From an uncultured Alphaproteobacteria bacterium (GTDB lineage: Bacteria; Pseudomonadota; Alphaproteobacteria; Rs-D84): a stretch of DNA of 64,000 nt. Positions within the stretch are counted from its first letter, which is position 1, and each line of letters opens with the position of its first letter. The stretch spans positions 380,132-444,131 of the forward strand of contig CATOOF010000001.1 of the NCBI GenBank assembly GCA_951801825.1, given 5' to 3'. Positions 3,847-58,976 of this stretch are shown here, in pieces. The translations under genes were made by a program, and so were the position numbers. A model generated the notes under the pieces. It made no database searches and was not told the DNA's origin. It worked only from the letters and a program-made list of their open reading frames with translations.

Positions 3847-4212
3847 ATGGCAGACATTCAGAAATTAGTTGAAGAATTGTCAAAATTGAGCGTTTTGGAA
3901 GCTGTTGAACTGTCCAAGGCGTTGGAAGAAGCGTGGGGCGTATCTGCTGCCGCCGCAGTTGCAGTTGCAGCTGGTCCGGCCGCGGCCGCCGCAGAAGAAA
4001 AGACGGAATTTGACGTTGTTCTGGCCGAAGTTGGTGCGAACAAACTGGCCGTCATCAAGGCTGTAAAAGATATCACAGGCCTGGGCCTGGGCGAAGCAAA
4101 AGCCCTGGTTGAAGGTGCGCCGAAGACCGTAAAAGAAGCGGTTGCCAAGGACGAAGCTGAAAAGCTGAAAGCGACCTTGGAAGGTGCCGGTGCCAAGGTT
4201 GAATTGAAATAA
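3847..4212 (+). CDS. rplL: 50S ribosomal protein L7/L12
   Basis: Ala-rich hinge followed by a conserved C-terminal domain (EKTEFDVVL...[19 protein letters not shown]). Confidence 0.95.
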
Positions 4213-30688: not shown

Positions 30689-31255
30689 TTAGTTACGCTT
30701 TCCTTTTTTCAACAGGACAAACCCCAGTCCCGCAACCAGTGCCACCAACAGGCCCCAGAACCAGATTGTGGAATTGCCTTCTGTTTTGTTTGACTGCGCC
30801 GCCGCGGCATCATACTCGGAAATTGCGTTTGCACGCTCCGCATTGGCGGCCTTAAAACCCTCGGCATCCTTTTCCATTTCAGCCTTGTTTTCTGCCGCTG
30901 TTTTCTTTTCAGCATCGGACATATCCGCTTCTACCGCGGTGCGCAAATCGTCCTGCATAAAGTCGGCATAACCCTGAAAGCATTTTTCGCCGACAACCAA
31001 AACAGGCACGCCACCGGATTCGTATTCACATTTTGTCAGTGTTTCCTGAAACATTGGCAGGTTTTTTTCATCCATTACATTGACTTCTGTAACCTTGATT
31101 GTCGGATATTCGTAAACCAGTGCACTGCTGATGAAATCGCGGGCATGGTGACAATGCGGGCATGTTGGCGAATAATAAACGGTAATATCCGCGGCGGATG
31201 CCGAACCAATAAACGCCAGCCCCATCATGGCCGATATAACAGATGTTTTTTTCAT
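30689..31255 (-). CDS. Periplasmic thioredoxin/glutaredoxin-fold protein (CPHC active site) with a C-terminal membrane anchor
   Basis: Signal peptide, YYSPTCPHCHHARDF motif, C-terminal hydrophobic helix plus KKGKRN. Confidence 0.6.
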   Translation of the reverse strand: MKKTSVISAMMGLAFIGSASAADITVYYSPTCPHCHHARDFISSALVYEYPTIKVTEVNVMDEKNLPMFQETLTKCEYESGGVPVLVVGEKCFQGYADFMQDDLRTAVEADMSDAEKKTAAENKAEMEKDAEGFKAANAERANAISEYDAAAAQSNKTEGNSTIWFWGLLVALVAGLGFVLLKKGKRN

Positions 31256-31401: not shown

Positions 31402-31986
31402 ATGTTTACTTTATCTCAGTTCCCTCTGCCGTATGCGTCTGATGCGCTGGCGCCATACATCAGCAGTGACACCATATTTTATCATCATGGCAAGCATGTT
31501 GGCACATACATTAAAAATCTGAACGATTTGATTGCAGGTACGGCGTATGCGGATATGCCGTTGGTAGATATCATAAAAACATCTATTAACCGCGACCCAA
31601 AGGTGTTTAATAACGCCGCCCAGGTTTACAATCATGATTTCTTTTTTCATTGTCTGCGCCCGGCAAAGGAAGAGATGCAGATGCCCGCGGAACTGGCGGC
31701 GGCATTTGGCGGTGCCGATGCATTGAAAGAGCAGTTTCGTACCGCGGCTCTGTCTGTTTTTGGCAGTGGCTGGACATGGATTGTTCGTGATGGCGATGCA
31801 TATAAAATAATTACCACTGCAAACGCCGATACGCCGATTGCACATGGTTTGACGCCGGTATTTACCCTGGATGTGTGGGAACATGCATATTATCTGGATT
31901 ACCAGAATCGTCGTGCGGACTTTATAGATGCGGTTCTTGATAACTTGGTTAATTGGGAATTTGTAGCAGAAAATATGAAAAAATAA
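31402..31986 (+). CDS. sodB: Fe/Mn superoxide dismutase
   Basis: HHGKHH-like, DVWEHAYYLDYQNRR signature. Confidence 0.93.
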   Translation: MFTLSQFPLPYASDALAPYISSDTIFYHHGKHVGTYIKNLNDLIAGTAYADMPLVDIIKTSINRDPKVFNNAAQVYNHDFFFHCLRPAKEEMQMPAELAAAFGGADALKEQFRTAALSVFGSGWTWIVRDGDAYKIITTANADTPIAHGLTPVFTLDVWEHAYYLDYQNRRADFIDAVLDNLVNWEFVAENMKK

Positions 31987-55414: not shown

Positions 55415-55660
55415 ATGACACATGCAGATATGTGGAATGCAATAGACAGTTTCGCCAGCAGTCGTGGTATGACCTGTTCTTGTATGGCGCGACGCAGCGG
55501 ACTTGATTCAACAACATTGAATCGCAGCAAGCGTTGGACACGCGACGGTAAACCGCGATGGCCATCAATGCAAAGTGTGGCAAAGGTTCTAGATTCAAAT
55601 AATGCGTACATGATAGATTTTGCGCGTTTTTGTCCAATGCCTGACGACAAAGAAAAATAA
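55415..55660 (+). CDS. Small XRE/phage-repressor-like HTH protein (81 aa)
   Basis: Strong SD AAAGGAGAGGG. SSRGMTCSCMARRSGLDSTTLNR HTH segment. Confidence 0.55.
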   Translation: MTHADMWNAIDSFASSRGMTCSCMARRSGLDSTTLNRSKRWTRDGKPRWPSMQSVAKVLDSNNAYMIDFARFCPMPDDKEK

Positions 55661-55680: not shown

Positions 55681-55705
55681 ATACGGGGATACCCCGTATT
55701 TTTTT
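55681..55705. terminator. Bidirectional terminator between the HTH gene and nrdG
   Basis: ATACGGGG/CCCCGTAT stem plus T7. Confidence 0.75.
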
Positions 55706-56405
55706 ATTCGCGCCAAATAACAGATTCAAACATGGTGTTTATTTTGTCTCGCAAAACATTGTCGTTGAAAAACTGTTCCCGCATGTCGGCTGTTGTTTTG
55801 TCTTTTTCATCGTCAAAATGTGGAATGTATTTTTGTATTGCAATATTTTTCACACCGCGTGCCGCTAACATATCTGTAATTTCTGATAGGTCGGATTTTG
55901 TCATAAAACGCGGATCGCATGTCATGCGCACCTCTAACTCGTGACCCGTCGCCAGCCATATGTCCAGCGATTGTATCATTCTGTCGTATGCGATGTCATT
56001 CCCGGCCAGTTTTTTATACTTTTCGCGGGTTGCCTTGAAATCCAGTCCCACCCAGTCTACGGTTTGTGCCGCCTGGCGTAACTGTTCGGGATAAAAACCG
56101 TTTGTATGCAGCCCGATTGAAAACCCAAGTGCCTTTACACGCCGCATAAAGGCCAGTGTTGCTTCGCCCTGCATCAGGGCCTCGCCGCCGGAAAACACAA
56201 CTGCCTCCAGTTTACCAACGCGGTTTTCCAGCATTGCGAATACTTTTTCTGGGTCGTATTCGCCGTCCCCCACATCCAGTAAATGGCGGTTGGAACAATA
56301 CGCACACCGCAACGGACATCCCCTCAGAAACAGCACCGCGGCAATTTTCCCCGGATAGTCGATTGTGGTAAACGGAACCAATCCGCCAATCTGGACATCT
56401 GGCAT
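55704..56405 (-). CDS. nrdG: Anaerobic ribonucleoside-triphosphate reductase activating protein (radical SAM)
   Basis: GCPLRCAYCSN CxxxCxxC motif. Directly downstream of nrdD. Confidence 0.85.
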   Translation of the reverse strand: MPDVQIGGLVPFTTIDYPGKIAAVLFLRGCPLRCAYCSNRHLLDVGDGEYDPEKVFAMLENRVGKLEAVVFSGGEALMQGEATLAFMRRVKALGFSIGLHTNGFYPEQLRQAAQTVDWVGLDFKATREKYKKLAGNDIAYDRMIQSLDIWLATGHELEVRMTCDPRFMTKSDLSEITDMLAARGVKNIAIQKYIPHFDDEKDKTTADMREQFFNDNVLRDKINTMFESVIWRE

Positions 56406-56410
56406 TTTGT

Positions 56411-56599
56411 TTATGCCGCCTTTTTCATCAGTTCTTCATGGCGTGCGCCGGTGGTCAAACAGTTTGATTCTTTAAATGTCTTTCTTTCGCAGAATTCTGA
56501 AAATTTGCCAATGTTAAAGTTTGATACGGCTCTTATAAAACCCATAGAGCGTGAAAATCGTTCACACGGTGTTCTCTGTAATGTATCTACTCCTGCCAT
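56411..56599 (-). CDS. Stand-alone glycyl-radical domain protein corresponding to the NrdD C-terminus (62 aa)
   Basis: SRSMGFIRAVSNFNIGKFSEFCERK parallels the NrdD C-terminal SRVVGYLRPVSNWNAGKQEEFKDRK block. Own SD AAGGAGGAG. Same frame as nrdD, 12 codons after its TAA. Confidence 0.7.
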   Translation of the reverse strand: MAGVDTLQRTPCERFSRSMGFIRAVSNFNIGKFSEFCERKTFKESNCLTTGARHEELMKKAA

Positions 56600-56635
56600 G
56601 ATTGTCTCCTCCTTGTTTATTGGCTTTCTGTTTGT

Positions 56636-58693
56636 TTATTGGTCATTCGATGCCCGGGCCGCGGCGGCAATTTCGGCGTCGCATTTCGGACAGAATTCAT
56701 AGTTCCCGGCCAGATATCCGTGTTTCGGGCATATCGAGAATGTCGGGGTCAGTGTCATATACGGAATCCGATAGTTTTCAAATATCGTACGTACAATCTT
56801 TTGCGCGGCATCGCCACTGGATACGGGTTCGCCCATATACAGGTGCAACATCGTCCCGCCCGTATATTTACGCTGCAGCTCTTCCTGGTGTTCCAGTGCG
56901 ACGAACGGGTCGTCAGTAAAGTTTACCGGTAACTGGGTCGAATTTGTATAATACGGTGCATCCTTTGTTCCGGCGGTAATGATATCCGGGAAGTTTTTGA
57001 CGTCCGTTTTTGCAAACCGGTAAGAGCATCCCTCGGCCGGTGTTGCCTCCAGATTATAAAGATTTCCGGTCTGTTCCTGGAAACTGGCCAGGTTTTCGCG
57101 GATAAAGTCCATAACGTCCAGTACCAATTTCTTGCCGAATACGGATGCGATATTTTCCGCCCCGTCTGTAAAGTTCAATACCATTTCATTCGCGCCATTA
57201 ACACCAATGGTCGAGAAATGATGATTCCAGTCGCCCAGGTAGCGGCGCGTGAACGGATACAATCCGCGTTCCATATTTTTGCTGATAATCGTACGTTTGA
57301 TTTCCAAACAGTCGCGCCCCAAATCCAGCAAACGTTTCAGTTCGCAGAACAGGCCTTCGCGGTCGCCCTTGTGTGTATAACCCAGGCGGGCCAGATTGAT
57401 TGTTACCACGCCAATCGAGCCTGTTTTTTCCGCCGACCCGAACAGTCCGCCGCCGCGCTTTAGCAATTCGCGTACGTCCAGACGCAGCCGACAGCACATA
57501 GAACGCACGTCCGTCGGATTCAAATCAGAGTTCAAGAAATTCTGGAAATTCGGAATACCGTATTTTGCCGCCAATTCAAACAGTGGTTTTACGTTTGGAT
57601 GATTCCACGGGAAATCAGGCGTGATGTTGTATGTCGGAATCGGGAATGTAAAGGGCCGACCCATGGCGTCACCCTCGGTCATGACCTCAATAAACGCCTT
57701 GTTTATCATATCCATTTCCGCCTGCAGGTCGCCATATGTGAAATCGACCATTTTTTTGCCGACAAATGGACGCTGTTCGCGTAAATCTTTTGGACAGGTC
57801 CAGTCAAATGTAAAGTTGATAAACGGTGTCTGCGTCCCCCACCGGCACGGTACCGCACAGTTAAAGACCAATGTCTGCATTGCGTTTTTAACATCTGCAT
57901 ATGACATATTGTCGATTCTGACATATGGTGCCAGATAAGTGTCCACGGACGAGAATGCCTGGGCGCCTGCAAATTCGTTCTGCAACGTTCCCAAAAAGTT
58001 TACCATATGCGAAATTGCCGTCGCCATATGCTTGGCCGGCTCGCACTGCAGGTATCCTGGAACACCGTTAAATCCTTCGTAGAGCAGTTCACGCAGTGAC
58101 CATCCCGCACAGTATCCCGTCAGCCACCCCAGGTCGTGAATATGAATCGCGGCCGTCTTGTGTGCCTCTGCCACGGCGCGCGGAAACAGATTCAGCCAAT
58201 ATTCTGCCGTCACGCGTTCAGATGTACGCAGAATCAGGCCGCCGATTGAATATCCGATATTGGCATTTTCCTTTATTCGCCAGTTGGAACCGCCAACATA
58301 TCCTTCAATAATATCAACGGCGTCAACCGTTGAATTACGAATCTCGCTACGTTTTTGGCGATATATTATATATGCCTGGGCTGTTTTATATGCATGCGCA
58401 TCCATCAGGGACTGAATTACAGTGTCCTGAATTACCTCAACCGTTGGGGTTTTCCCGGCAAACAGTGCATCGAGTCTGTTCAGTGCATTTTGTGTAATTT
58501 TTACAATTTCTTCATCTGATATTTCATCAGTTGTTGCCACTGCCTTTTTTATTGCGTCAAAAATTTTGCGCGAATCAAACGGTACTGTTTCGCCGCTACG
58601 TTTTTGTACCGCCACCAATTTTGTGGCAAGTGTTGGAATAACTTGAATTTTGGTTTCTGAACAAGACATTTTTAACCCCTGTTTTTTTGTCAA
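56636..58693 (-). CDS. nrdD: Anaerobic ribonucleoside-triphosphate reductase large subunit, lacking the C-terminal glycyl-radical motif
   Basis: N-terminal ATP-cone, class III RNR body, C-terminal Zn-ribbon CPKHG...CPKC, then TAA. Confidence 0.88.
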   Translation of the reverse strand: MTKKQGLKMSCSETKIQVIPTLATKLVAVQKRSGETVPFDSRKIFDAIKKAVATTDEISDEEIVKITQNALNRLDALFAGKTPTVEVIQDTVIQSLMDAHAYKTAQAYIIYRQKRSEIRNSTVDAVDIIEGYVGGSNWRIKENANIGYSIGGLILRTSERVTAEYWLNLFPRAVAEAHKTAAIHIHDLGWLTGYCAGWSLRELLYEGFNGVPGYLQCEPAKHMATAISHMVNFLGTLQNEFAGAQAFSSVDTYLAPYVRIDNMSYADVKNAMQTLVFNCAVPCRWGTQTPFINFTFDWTCPKDLREQRPFVGKKMVDFTYGDLQAEMDMINKAFIEVMTEGDAMGRPFTFPIPTYNITPDFPWNHPNVKPLFELAAKYGIPNFQNFLNSDLNPTDVRSMCCRLRLDVRELLKRGGGLFGSAEKTGSIGVVTINLARLGYTHKGDREGLFCELKRLLDLGRDCLEIKRTIISKNMERGLYPFTRRYLGDWNHHFSTIGVNGANEMVLNFTDGAENIASVFGKKLVLDVMDFIRENLASFQEQTGNLYNLEATPAEGCSYRFAKTDVKNFPDIITAGTKDAPYYTNSTQLPVNFTDDPFVALEHQEELQRKYTGGTMLHLYMGEPVSSGDAAQKIVRTIFENYRIPYMTLTPTFSICPKHGYLAGNYEFCPKCDAEIAAAARASNDQ

Positions 58694-58976
58694 AATACAA
58701 TATGTAGTGGTCTGTTCTTTGATTTGTTGTCAATATATAGTTAATGGATTTTTTGCGCAATAAATAAAAATGAAAAATTTTTTTATTTTTTGCTTTACTT
58801 TTAAAAAGGCCGCAGTTCTGCCGTGTTCAAAATATAATGTTTTACATATGTAAAACACAAAAGATTATTTTGTGTCAAAAAATCCTAAAAAACGAATTGG
58901 GAACAGAATCGGTTTTAATATAAAAACACAAAATATAGATAAAAAACTGCGAATCAGAACATATATATTGACAAAA

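Follow-up and report, generated by a model that had tools for sequence, protein, structure and literature searches.

Split nrdD genes point to a two-polypeptide class III ribonucleotide reductase in Alphaproteobacteria of the order Rs-D84

Introduction

Can the radical-carrying glycine of a class III (anaerobic) ribonucleotide reductase (RNR) reside on a polypeptide of its own? The question is raised by a locus in a 64,000-nucleotide stretch of DNA (the window, whose coordinates are used throughout) from an uncultured alphaproteobacterium of the order Rs-D84 (GenBank assembly GCA_951801825.1, contig CATOOF010000001.1, positions 380,132 to 444,131). Here nrdD, the gene for the catalytic subunit, ends at a TAA codon just past the zinc ribbon. 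The expected C-terminal glycyl-radical block appears 12 codons further on, in the same frame, as a separate open reading frame (ORF) of 62 amino acids (aa), and is followed by nrdG, the gene for the activase. A sequence-only reading of this DNA took the split to be genuine, with an enzyme made of two pieces, and argued against read-through and sequencing error; all that it stated about the sequence at this junction holds, and its proposal is supported by comparative data from 88 loci, by selection and by the conserved Shine-Dalgarno (SD) sequence of the small ORF. We conclude that the product of the locus is very probably a class III RNR that needs two polypeptides, with all its genes in a single operon, nrdD(large)-nrdD(small)-nrdG.

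In glycyl radical enzymes (GREs), the activase abstracts the pro-S hydrogen of a conserved glycine while the glycyl domain lies outside the barrel, and the radical is then stored buried beside the finger-loop cysteine. Access of the activase is thought to need a large 'flip-out' of the C-terminal radical domain, and how this occurs is a long-standing question. Oxygen cleaves the chain at the radical.

For pyruvate formate-lyase (PFL), two stand-alone glycyl proteins, the 14-kDa GrcA/YfiD and Y06I of phage T4, can be activated by the PFL activating enzyme (PFL-AE) and can reactivate the cleaved enzyme in trans (PMC8683613). According to a June 2026 review, spare-part proteins are known from no GRE class other than the formate lyases (PMC13450708); a trans-acting glycyl domain outside PFL has been raised as a possibility and has so far not been found (PMC8683613, PMC13450708), and a 2022 analysis of RNR extensions described split domains as distinctive of class II (PMC9669993). 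Full-text literature searches, whose coverage leaves out most subscription journals, turned up no account of an NrdD glycyl domain with a gene of its own.

Results

The small ORF encodes the C-terminal block that is absent from NrdD

The 62-aa protein reads MAGVDTLQRTPCERFSRSMGFIRAVSNFNIGKFSEFCERKTFKESNCLTTGARHEELMKKAA and ends in a conserved 20-residue C-terminal tail, ...NCLTTGARHEELMKKAA. It matches the C-terminal ends of the NrdD profiles (PF13597 positions 531-562 of 562, E 0.0027; NF006126 positions 650-683 of 684; TIGR02487 positions 550-580), and the large and small ORFs together tile the full-length NrdD profile almost exactly (NF006126 4-656 plus 650-683). Pfam searches at E up to 1 gave PF13597 only, with no match to PF01228 (Gly_radical), and NCBIfam gave NrdD models only. 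The likeness to GrcA/YfiD proposed in the sequence-only reading can be kept as an analogy and not as homology: the small protein is akin to the C-terminus of NrdD and not to the PFL-type Gly_radical domain.

By eye, the core TPCERFSRSMGFIRAVSNFNIGKFSEFCERKTFK matches the ...PCEVYSRVVGYLRPVSQWNEGKQQEFKDRKEFK-type C-termini of fused relatives, such as QPCEVYSRVVGYLRPVSQWNEGKQQEFKDRKEFK in the cluster representative P0144 (18 of 34 positions identical); MAFFT aligned the small ORF with fused NrdDs only from the glycine on, with the first part gapped. When a profile built from six diverse stand-alone glycyl ORFs, among them that of the window, was compared with the PDB (profile A4), the best match was to residues 615-643 of Thermotoga maritima NrdD (EYMRIVG621YLVPVSAFNK, E 0.017), and the next NrdD match was to residues 712-737 of the P. 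copri enzyme. A profile of the Enterousia small ORFs only (A1) gave no PDB match at E up to 10. Because of the alignment to fused C-termini and the A4 match at G621, Gly20 is the predicted counterpart of the NrdD radical glycine. This glycine is kept in every homologue; stand-alone homologues, of 57-93 aa, number 178. The Phe that follows it, thought at first to be unusual, is real, but reflects a mere lineage preference, as F, Y or W occupies this position in relatives.

The large ORF matches the Pfam family NRDD (PF13597) with an E-value of 2.4e-167 over profile positions 1-534 of 562, NF006126 with 1016 bits (cut-off 548) over positions 4-656 of 684, and TIGR02487 with 458 bits (cut-off 326). 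Gene callers on identical contigs begin it at the ATG at 58667-58669, and not at 58693 as had been assumed; the codon there is TTG and would add eight codons. At the other end the ORF reads ...FCPKCDAEIAAAARASNDQ-TAA on the minus strand and the chain stops, with residues ...TPTFSICPKHGYLAGNYEFCPKCDAEIAAAARASNDQ, 14 residues past the zinc ribbon and without a glycyl-radical block. The RxxG[YF] block expected of an NrdD on the same polypeptide is absent from this single chain and present in the two-ORF system, which as a whole has every defining sequence feature of a class III RNR.

The large subunit looks functional: it keeps the invariant columns of NrdD and has a confident NrdD fold. All invariant columns of 40 aligned NrdDs are retained, including C187 (the beta-A cysteine) and C393. 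The finger loop, which is the expected site of the thiyl radical and belongs to one of two motif classes (MGCR and MCCR) defined in PMC9669993, has C393, R394 and L395 invariant and M391 and C392 near-invariant in alignments A3 and A5. In the zinc ribbon, C647 and C660 are invariant and C663 near-invariant (A5), and it is here that the alignments of the large subunit to PDB entries 8p23 and 4coi stop. The AlphaFold2 (AF2) model of the large subunit has a pLDDT of 87.8, with low values only at the finger loop (~residues 390-411) and in the final nine residues, and its top 36 Foldseek matches in the PDB are all class III RNRs.

Between the two ORFs lies a strong SD at the position that the sequence-only reading gave it, and the small subunit is predicted to be translated independently from this SD and its own ATG. 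Rfam and promoter/terminator scans of the locus found no terminator-like site, no Rfam match and nothing relevant between the genes. The features of the locus and of its surroundings are collected in Table 1.

Table 1. Coordinates of the split nrdD operon and of other features in the window
Feature	Position	Strand	Details
nrdD, large (catalytic) subunit	56636..58669	-	677 aa; ATP-cone, NrdD barrel and zinc ribbon; includes TAA 56636-56638
ATP-cone (allosteric activity domain)	58343..58609	-	PF03477, 75 bits, E 6e-21; residues 21-109
Finger-loop motif M391-C392-C393-R394	57488..57499	-	double-cysteine 'MCCR' type; read from sequence
Zinc ribbon C647-x2-H650 ... C660-x2-C663	56681..56731	-	last conserved element of the large subunit; read from sequence
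Intercistronic spacer	56600..56635	-	36 nt (12 codons), ACAAACAGAAAGCCAATAAACAAGGAGGAGACAATC
Shine-Dalgarno AAGGAGGAG	56606..56614	-	within the spacer, six bases ahead of the small-ORF ATG
nrdD, small subunit	56411..56599	-	62 aa; stand-alone NrdD-type glycyl-radical domain; ATG 56597-56599; same frame as large nrdD
Codon of candidate radical glycine G20	56540..56542	-
nrdG, radical-SAM activase	55704..56405	-	233 aa; begins 5 nt past the small-ORF stop
Two NrdR-box-like palindromes	58695..58743	-	TAACTATATATTGACA and CCACTACATATTGTAT, 16 bp each, 33 bp apart; just upstream of nrdD
81-aa ORF	55415..55660	+	convergent with nrdG
Fe/Mn superoxide dismutase	31402..31986	+
Glutaredoxin-domain protein	30689..31255	-

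The split is conserved and under purifying selection in Enterousia and its relatives

We compared 88 loci with a readable nrdD, among them those of 80 GTDB species representatives that belong to Candidatus Enterousia or to Alphaproteobacteria related to it. The nrdD stop codon is present in all 88 (TAA in 86, TAG in two), with no sense codon in its place in any relative, and the small ORF begins with ATG in every case. A GGAG or GAGG core lies 5-9 nucleotides (nt) ahead of this ATG in 86 of the 88. At 86 of the 88 related loci, nrdG occupies the same position, starting 2-15 nt past the small-ORF stop in ~80 of these 86. The spacer varies between 21 and 53 nt, and its sequence is unconserved save for the SD. 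All three frame offsets occur (0, +1 and +2 in 34, 29 and 25 loci, respectively), and the in-frame relation of the two ORFs in the window is therefore a coincidence. Within a single species (L005-L008), an A-run just before position 4001 of the locus gives a spacer of 30, 32 or 33 nt, which shifts the frame relation and leaves both proteins unchanged.

Over the 54 codons from RTxCE to the stop, there is not one insertion or deletion across the 88 loci. The ratio of nonsynonymous to synonymous substitution rates (dN/dS) of the small ORF is 0.07 overall and 0.10 in pairs with dS <1, with values of 0.06 for the canonical part and 0.11 for the 20-residue tail. The small ORF is under strong purifying selection.

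The exact 62-aa ORF was found on at least 21 independent contigs (NCBI, JGI, ENA and Logan), always between a 677-aa nrdD and a 233-aa nrdG. A small protein of 79% identity (P0014) has the same three-gene arrangement in another genomic neighbourhood, by a DNA ligase gene; one P0014 contig is 958 kb long and bears a name of the hifiasm circular-contig type, which points to a long-read origin. In a scan of one genome per species, relatives of the small ORF were present in 246 GTDB species genomes. The best 80 of the 246 are metagenome-assembled genomes labelled Alphaproteobacteria or Candidatus Enterousia, save a few with other or generic labels, and among these best 80 genome matches the glycyl motif is never inside a long ORF. 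A profile search (A2) of a 5.8-billion-protein set returned 7966 matches; the 120 listed are all Enterousia-type.

We also note that CxC or CxxC clusters form the end of many large subunits of the Gly-less kind, both at related loci (L024, L025, L041, L057, L077, L078 and L088) and among more distant cluster representatives (P0122, P0127, P0131, P0134, P0175, P0187 and P0254), while the tail of the window's protein is cysteine-free. The small subunits retain conserved Cys12 and Cys37. Together, these cysteines could bind an additional metal or act as a redox-active pair.

Split NrdDs extend beyond this lineage

What had appeared as an oddity of a single genome belongs instead to a large family in which NrdD is split. 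We searched 1.84 billion cluster representatives exhaustively with the large subunit, using HMMER, and sorted the best 150 clusters (42-65% identity) by C-terminus with regular expressions. In 56 clusters the chain ends 3-45 residues past the zinc ribbon without an RxxG[YFW] block, a class in which the window itself is counted and one or two fused sequences, for example P0234, are misfiled. Another 16 have a variant ribbon (CP[YF]xH...) and likewise no block, and six end at the ribbon itself, where a contig end may have cut them. The canonical fused form, ...CPxCGxxxEVYSRVVGY..., accounts for 59 clusters, and 14 are fragments or unclear. Overall, the glycyl block is missing from roughly half of these 150 nearest NrdD representatives.

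Seven Gly-less representatives were sampled for a partner, and five have a glycyl ORF of 45-67 aa within 2 kb; the contigs of the remaining two (P0227 and P0243) are too short to show one. A 67-aa ORF overlaps the nrdD stop by 4 nt and is followed by nrdG in one (P0123, L091), and a 63-aa ORF overlaps the end of nrdD in another (P0135, L092). In a cellular context with ftsZ and nrdR, the order is nrdD, a 45-aa ORF and nrdG (P0143, L094 and L095). A phage-like context has nrdD, DUF7487, nrdG and then a 61-aa ORF (P0131, L089), and a nrdD with the variant ribbon has a 60-aa ORF 1.2 kb downstream, beyond three other genes (P0151, L097). Because other genes stand between the Gly-less nrdD and the glycyl ORF in L089 and L097, the two products must assemble in trans there.

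In a rough neighbour-joining tree, the window falls into a clade of ~26 Gly-less clusters with two fused clusters nested in it and fused clusters as its sisters; further groups without the glycine branch off in other places. This pattern suggests several fissions or re-fusions of NrdD, in a tree too crude for counting them, and the split is a widespread architecture that may have several origins.

Large subunits of several other split lineages carry an acidic, charged, heptad-like C-terminal helix of 20-35 residues (P0135, P0138, P0201, P0208, P0219, P0225, P0243 and P0246), for example KDEKLHEIDKKIEKLQKELEVEDEQE in P0135, and the partner small ORF in L092 (6380-6520) opens with a similar helix, NKNKEELKKELNDLRALRQEIL. 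These sequences suggest a coiled-coil tether between the pieces in such lineages. The same NrdD subfamily (P0121-P0270) is intein-rich: many members have one to four inteins, with lengths up to 1879 aa and 2-5 matched stretches, and Intein_splicing and LAGLIDADG matches occur among them.

Phages encode relatives of the small protein

In IMG/VR, relatives of the small protein are encoded on at least 395 viral contigs. In the best 80 of these loci (L100-L179), 79 of the relatives are stand-alone ORFs; the 3' end of an nrdD lies within 4 kb in 11, and neither nrdD nor nrdG is nearby in 69. Reading of the sequences gave terminase-like, portal-like and HNH-like proteins as neighbours. The orphan phage glycyl peptides may be spare parts for, or hijackers of, host class III RNR.

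Two small ORFs from outside Enterousia (L089 6838-7020 and L091 3551-3751) match positions 117-155 of 179 of phrog_4132 ('unknown function'), so that this family probably contains NrdD-type glycyl domains. A tblastn search of cultured phage genomes with a non-Enterousia small ORF gave no match, and cultured phages with related NrdDs (phiCTP1 and an Oceanotoga phage) have ordinary fused ones.

At one viral locus (L106 1743-4183; also L109 and L111), a 61-aa glycyl ORF lies right behind a pair of large radical-SAM proteins (336 and 432 aa), which both have a CxxxCxxC motif and cysteine-rich C-termini and are not NrdG-like. Candidate roles for this pair are an alternative activase or peptide modification.

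The surroundings of the operon

The nrdG of the window is of the NrdG2 type (TIGR02495, 178.5 bits, cut-off 131; also PF04055 and PF13353). The pair of palindromes upstream of nrdD, which we read as putative NrdR boxes by the published consensus, recurs at identical spacing in related Enterousia loci, often with a third element, ATATATTGC, farther upstream, and is probably the operator of the nrdD operon. NrdR itself was not among the ten window ORFs of 150-194 aa that were scanned. The 81-aa ORF convergent with nrdG has no Pfam match on record, and all four same-species contigs shown have a gene call in this position. The superoxide dismutase and glutaredoxin-domain protein, in the window of an anaerobe, hint at regular exposure to oxygen, which bears on the idea of a replaceable glycyl subunit.

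Discussion

The observations made here are the split of the gene and its conservation, the independent translation signals, purifying selection on the small ORF, the homology of the pieces to the two parts of NrdD and the intact catalytic motifs. Since the large chain comes without a glycyl domain, its small companion is probably an obligate partner and not a spare part.

The opposite view is that the small protein is a GrcA/YfiD-style spare part for an oxygen-cleaved, full-length NrdD encoded elsewhere, with the adjacent Gly-less nrdD being something else or inactive. Trans-acting stand-alone glycyl proteins are known for PFL (PMC8683613), and the prevalence of orphans among the phage relatives, 69 of 80 viral loci having no nrdD or nrdG within 4 kb, makes such a role possible in the wider family. 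Against this, in all 88 loci the neighbouring nrdD has no glycyl block yet is intact, with its catalytic motifs complete; the three genes are tightly coupled; the motif occurs in no long ORF among the best 80 genome matches; and the order Rs-D84 consists of gut bacteria with reduced genomes of < ~1 Mb (PMC12306168). For the locus studied here we regard this explanation as improbable.

Recoding, by stop read-through, frameshifting or bypassing, would yield one fused NrdD and make the separate ORF only apparent. The window taken by itself could be read in this way, its two ORFs being in frame with one TAA between them. The relatives speak strongly against it: frame offsets are spread evenly over the three possibilities, the spacer has no conserved sequence besides the SD, changes of 2-3 nt within one species affect neither ORF, the SD stands at a canonical distance from the ATG in 86 of 88 loci, the region has no RNA structure or Rfam family, and in L089 and L097 other genes intervene. 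The comparative data exclude read-through and frameshifting as a general mechanism, just as they exclude sequencing error and a pseudogene, and recoding in any form has only a slight chance of being correct.

A split intein that joins the two products by protein trans-splicing deserves mention, as NrdD relatives are rich in inteins (many representatives of 1000-1880 aa have 2-5 matched stretches, with Intein_splicing matches) and split inteins are known in RNR genes ('fractured genes', cited in PMC3653736). It is excluded, save for a vanishing residual probability, because the 14 residues past the zinc ribbon and the ~9 variable residues before the small-ORF core leave no room for intein halves and neither window protein matches an intein family. 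An assembly or sequencing error or a recent pseudogene, favoured only by the prior expectation of a single-chain NrdD, can be dismissed with equal assurance, as independent assemblies from four sources agree, relatives occur in 246 GTDB species genomes with the stop present in all of the best 80 read, and the small ORF is under purifying selection.

A two-polypeptide enzyme would be expected to work along the lines of other GREs and of GrcA/YfiD, from which we infer the association of the subunits, the activation of the small one and the selective advantage of the arrangement. NrdG, with S-adenosylmethionine (SAM), would first abstract a hydrogen from Gly20 of the free 62-aa subunit, for which no 'flip-out' from a barrel would be needed. 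The radical-bearing peptide would then dock non-covalently beside the zinc ribbon, in the large subunit's barrel, where Gly20 would generate a thiyl radical on a finger-loop cysteine, C392 or C393. The conserved tail, ...NxLTxGxRHxELMKKAA, which is absent from most fused NrdDs, may supply binding energy in place of the covalent link. As the glycyl radical is where oxygen cleaves a GRE chain, no more than a 62-residue peptide would have to be replaced, a built-in spare part; the arrangement may pay off by making oxygen damage cheap to mend and activation easier.

Several points weigh against a two-polypeptide enzyme. The support for it comes from sequence comparison and structural models. The matches of the small ORF to curated NrdD profiles are each weak (E 0.003-0.04, 12-17 bits), so that the assignment of a glycyl domain rests on position, motif and context, and the AF2 model of the small subunit alone is uninformative (pLDDT 56.7). 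A second, full-length nrdD elsewhere in these ~0.9-Mb genomes is possible, as the comparison covered individual loci, and with a single in-frame TAA between the ORFs here, low-level read-through to some fused protein is possible in this genome.

A further reading, which we put forward tentatively and hold to be less likely than its opposite, is that the small protein carries the radical as a subunit that can be exchanged freely, much as the beta subunit does in class I, and that such subunits would form a shared 'currency'. Docking to the large subunit may then be gated by the ATP-cone, and orphan phage peptides could insert themselves into the large subunits of the host, or repair them, and take over the supply of deoxynucleoside triphosphates.

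Compared with the canonical single-chain NrdD and its NrdG (E. coli, phage T4, T. maritima and P. copri; PDB 1h79, 4coi and 8p23), the two-polypeptide system has the same fold and profiles, the ATP-cone, an adjacent nrdG, an MCCR finger loop of the double-cysteine class also found in T. maritima, a C-x2-H...C-x2-C ribbon and an RxxG[YF]-x-R-P-V-x3-N-x-G-K block. It differs in that a second polypeptide of 62 aa, equipped with an SD and an ATG, carries the block, the large chain stops 14 residues past the ribbon, and the small chain bears the conserved 20-residue C-terminal extension. With the PFL cofactors of E. coli (GrcA/YfiD) and phage T4 (Y06I), the small subunit shares its nature as a small stand-alone protein that is essentially a glycyl-radical domain and, presumably, activation by the activase of the parent enzyme and action in trans on a large subunit without a functional glycyl domain. 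In contrast to these cofactors, its homology is to the NrdD C-terminus (PF13597) and not to the PFL-type Gly_radical domain (PF01228), its mass is ~7 kDa rather than 14 kDa, and, whereas GrcA backs up a full-length PFL after oxygen cleavage, the large subunit here never has a glycyl domain.

Other RNRs are also encoded in pieces. In the split class II enzyme NrdJa/NrdJb (Pseudomonas aeruginosa and Thermus phage phiYS40) and the 'genes-in-pieces' NrdA of Aeromonas phage Aeh1, the catalytic chain is likewise distributed over two adjacent ORFs and assembled non-covalently, but the RNR class and the break point are different, and the relationship is one of analogy and not of family membership: NrdJb carries an IscU-like domain and a zinc finger, and the Aeh1 nrdA is split within the barrel by a homing-endonuclease gene, whereas the break described here isolates the radical-carrying element itself. 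Phage nrdD genes annotated in several pieces (T4, Aeromonas phage phiAS4 and the Jug phages, with group I introns, inteins and homing endonucleases) resemble the locus in that respect; their fragmentation is due to splicing elements or unexplained, whereas here there is no intron, intein or endonuclease, just a short spacer with a ribosome-binding site. A 2026 paper on the Jug phages left uninterpreted a terminal 91-aa nrdD fragment for which there was no evidence of RNA splicing (PMC12880540), and this may be the same phenomenon.

The split is a real, conserved and widespread variant of a well-known enzyme, and apparently an undescribed one. A natural enzyme with its radical domain on a separate 7-kDa protein would make activation, docking and radical transfer separable and directly testable. 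If the two-polypeptide reading is true, no glycyl-radical domain outside PFL would have been seen to work in trans before this one; if the exchangeable-subunit and phage reading is true, PFL would no longer be the sole GRE with a spare-part or hijack system. There is also a consequence for annotation, as hundreds of genomes list the small ORF as a 'hypothetical protein' and the NrdD as 'truncated', mistakable for a pseudogene. This split NrdD may be the sole RNR of these reduced-genome gut bacteria.

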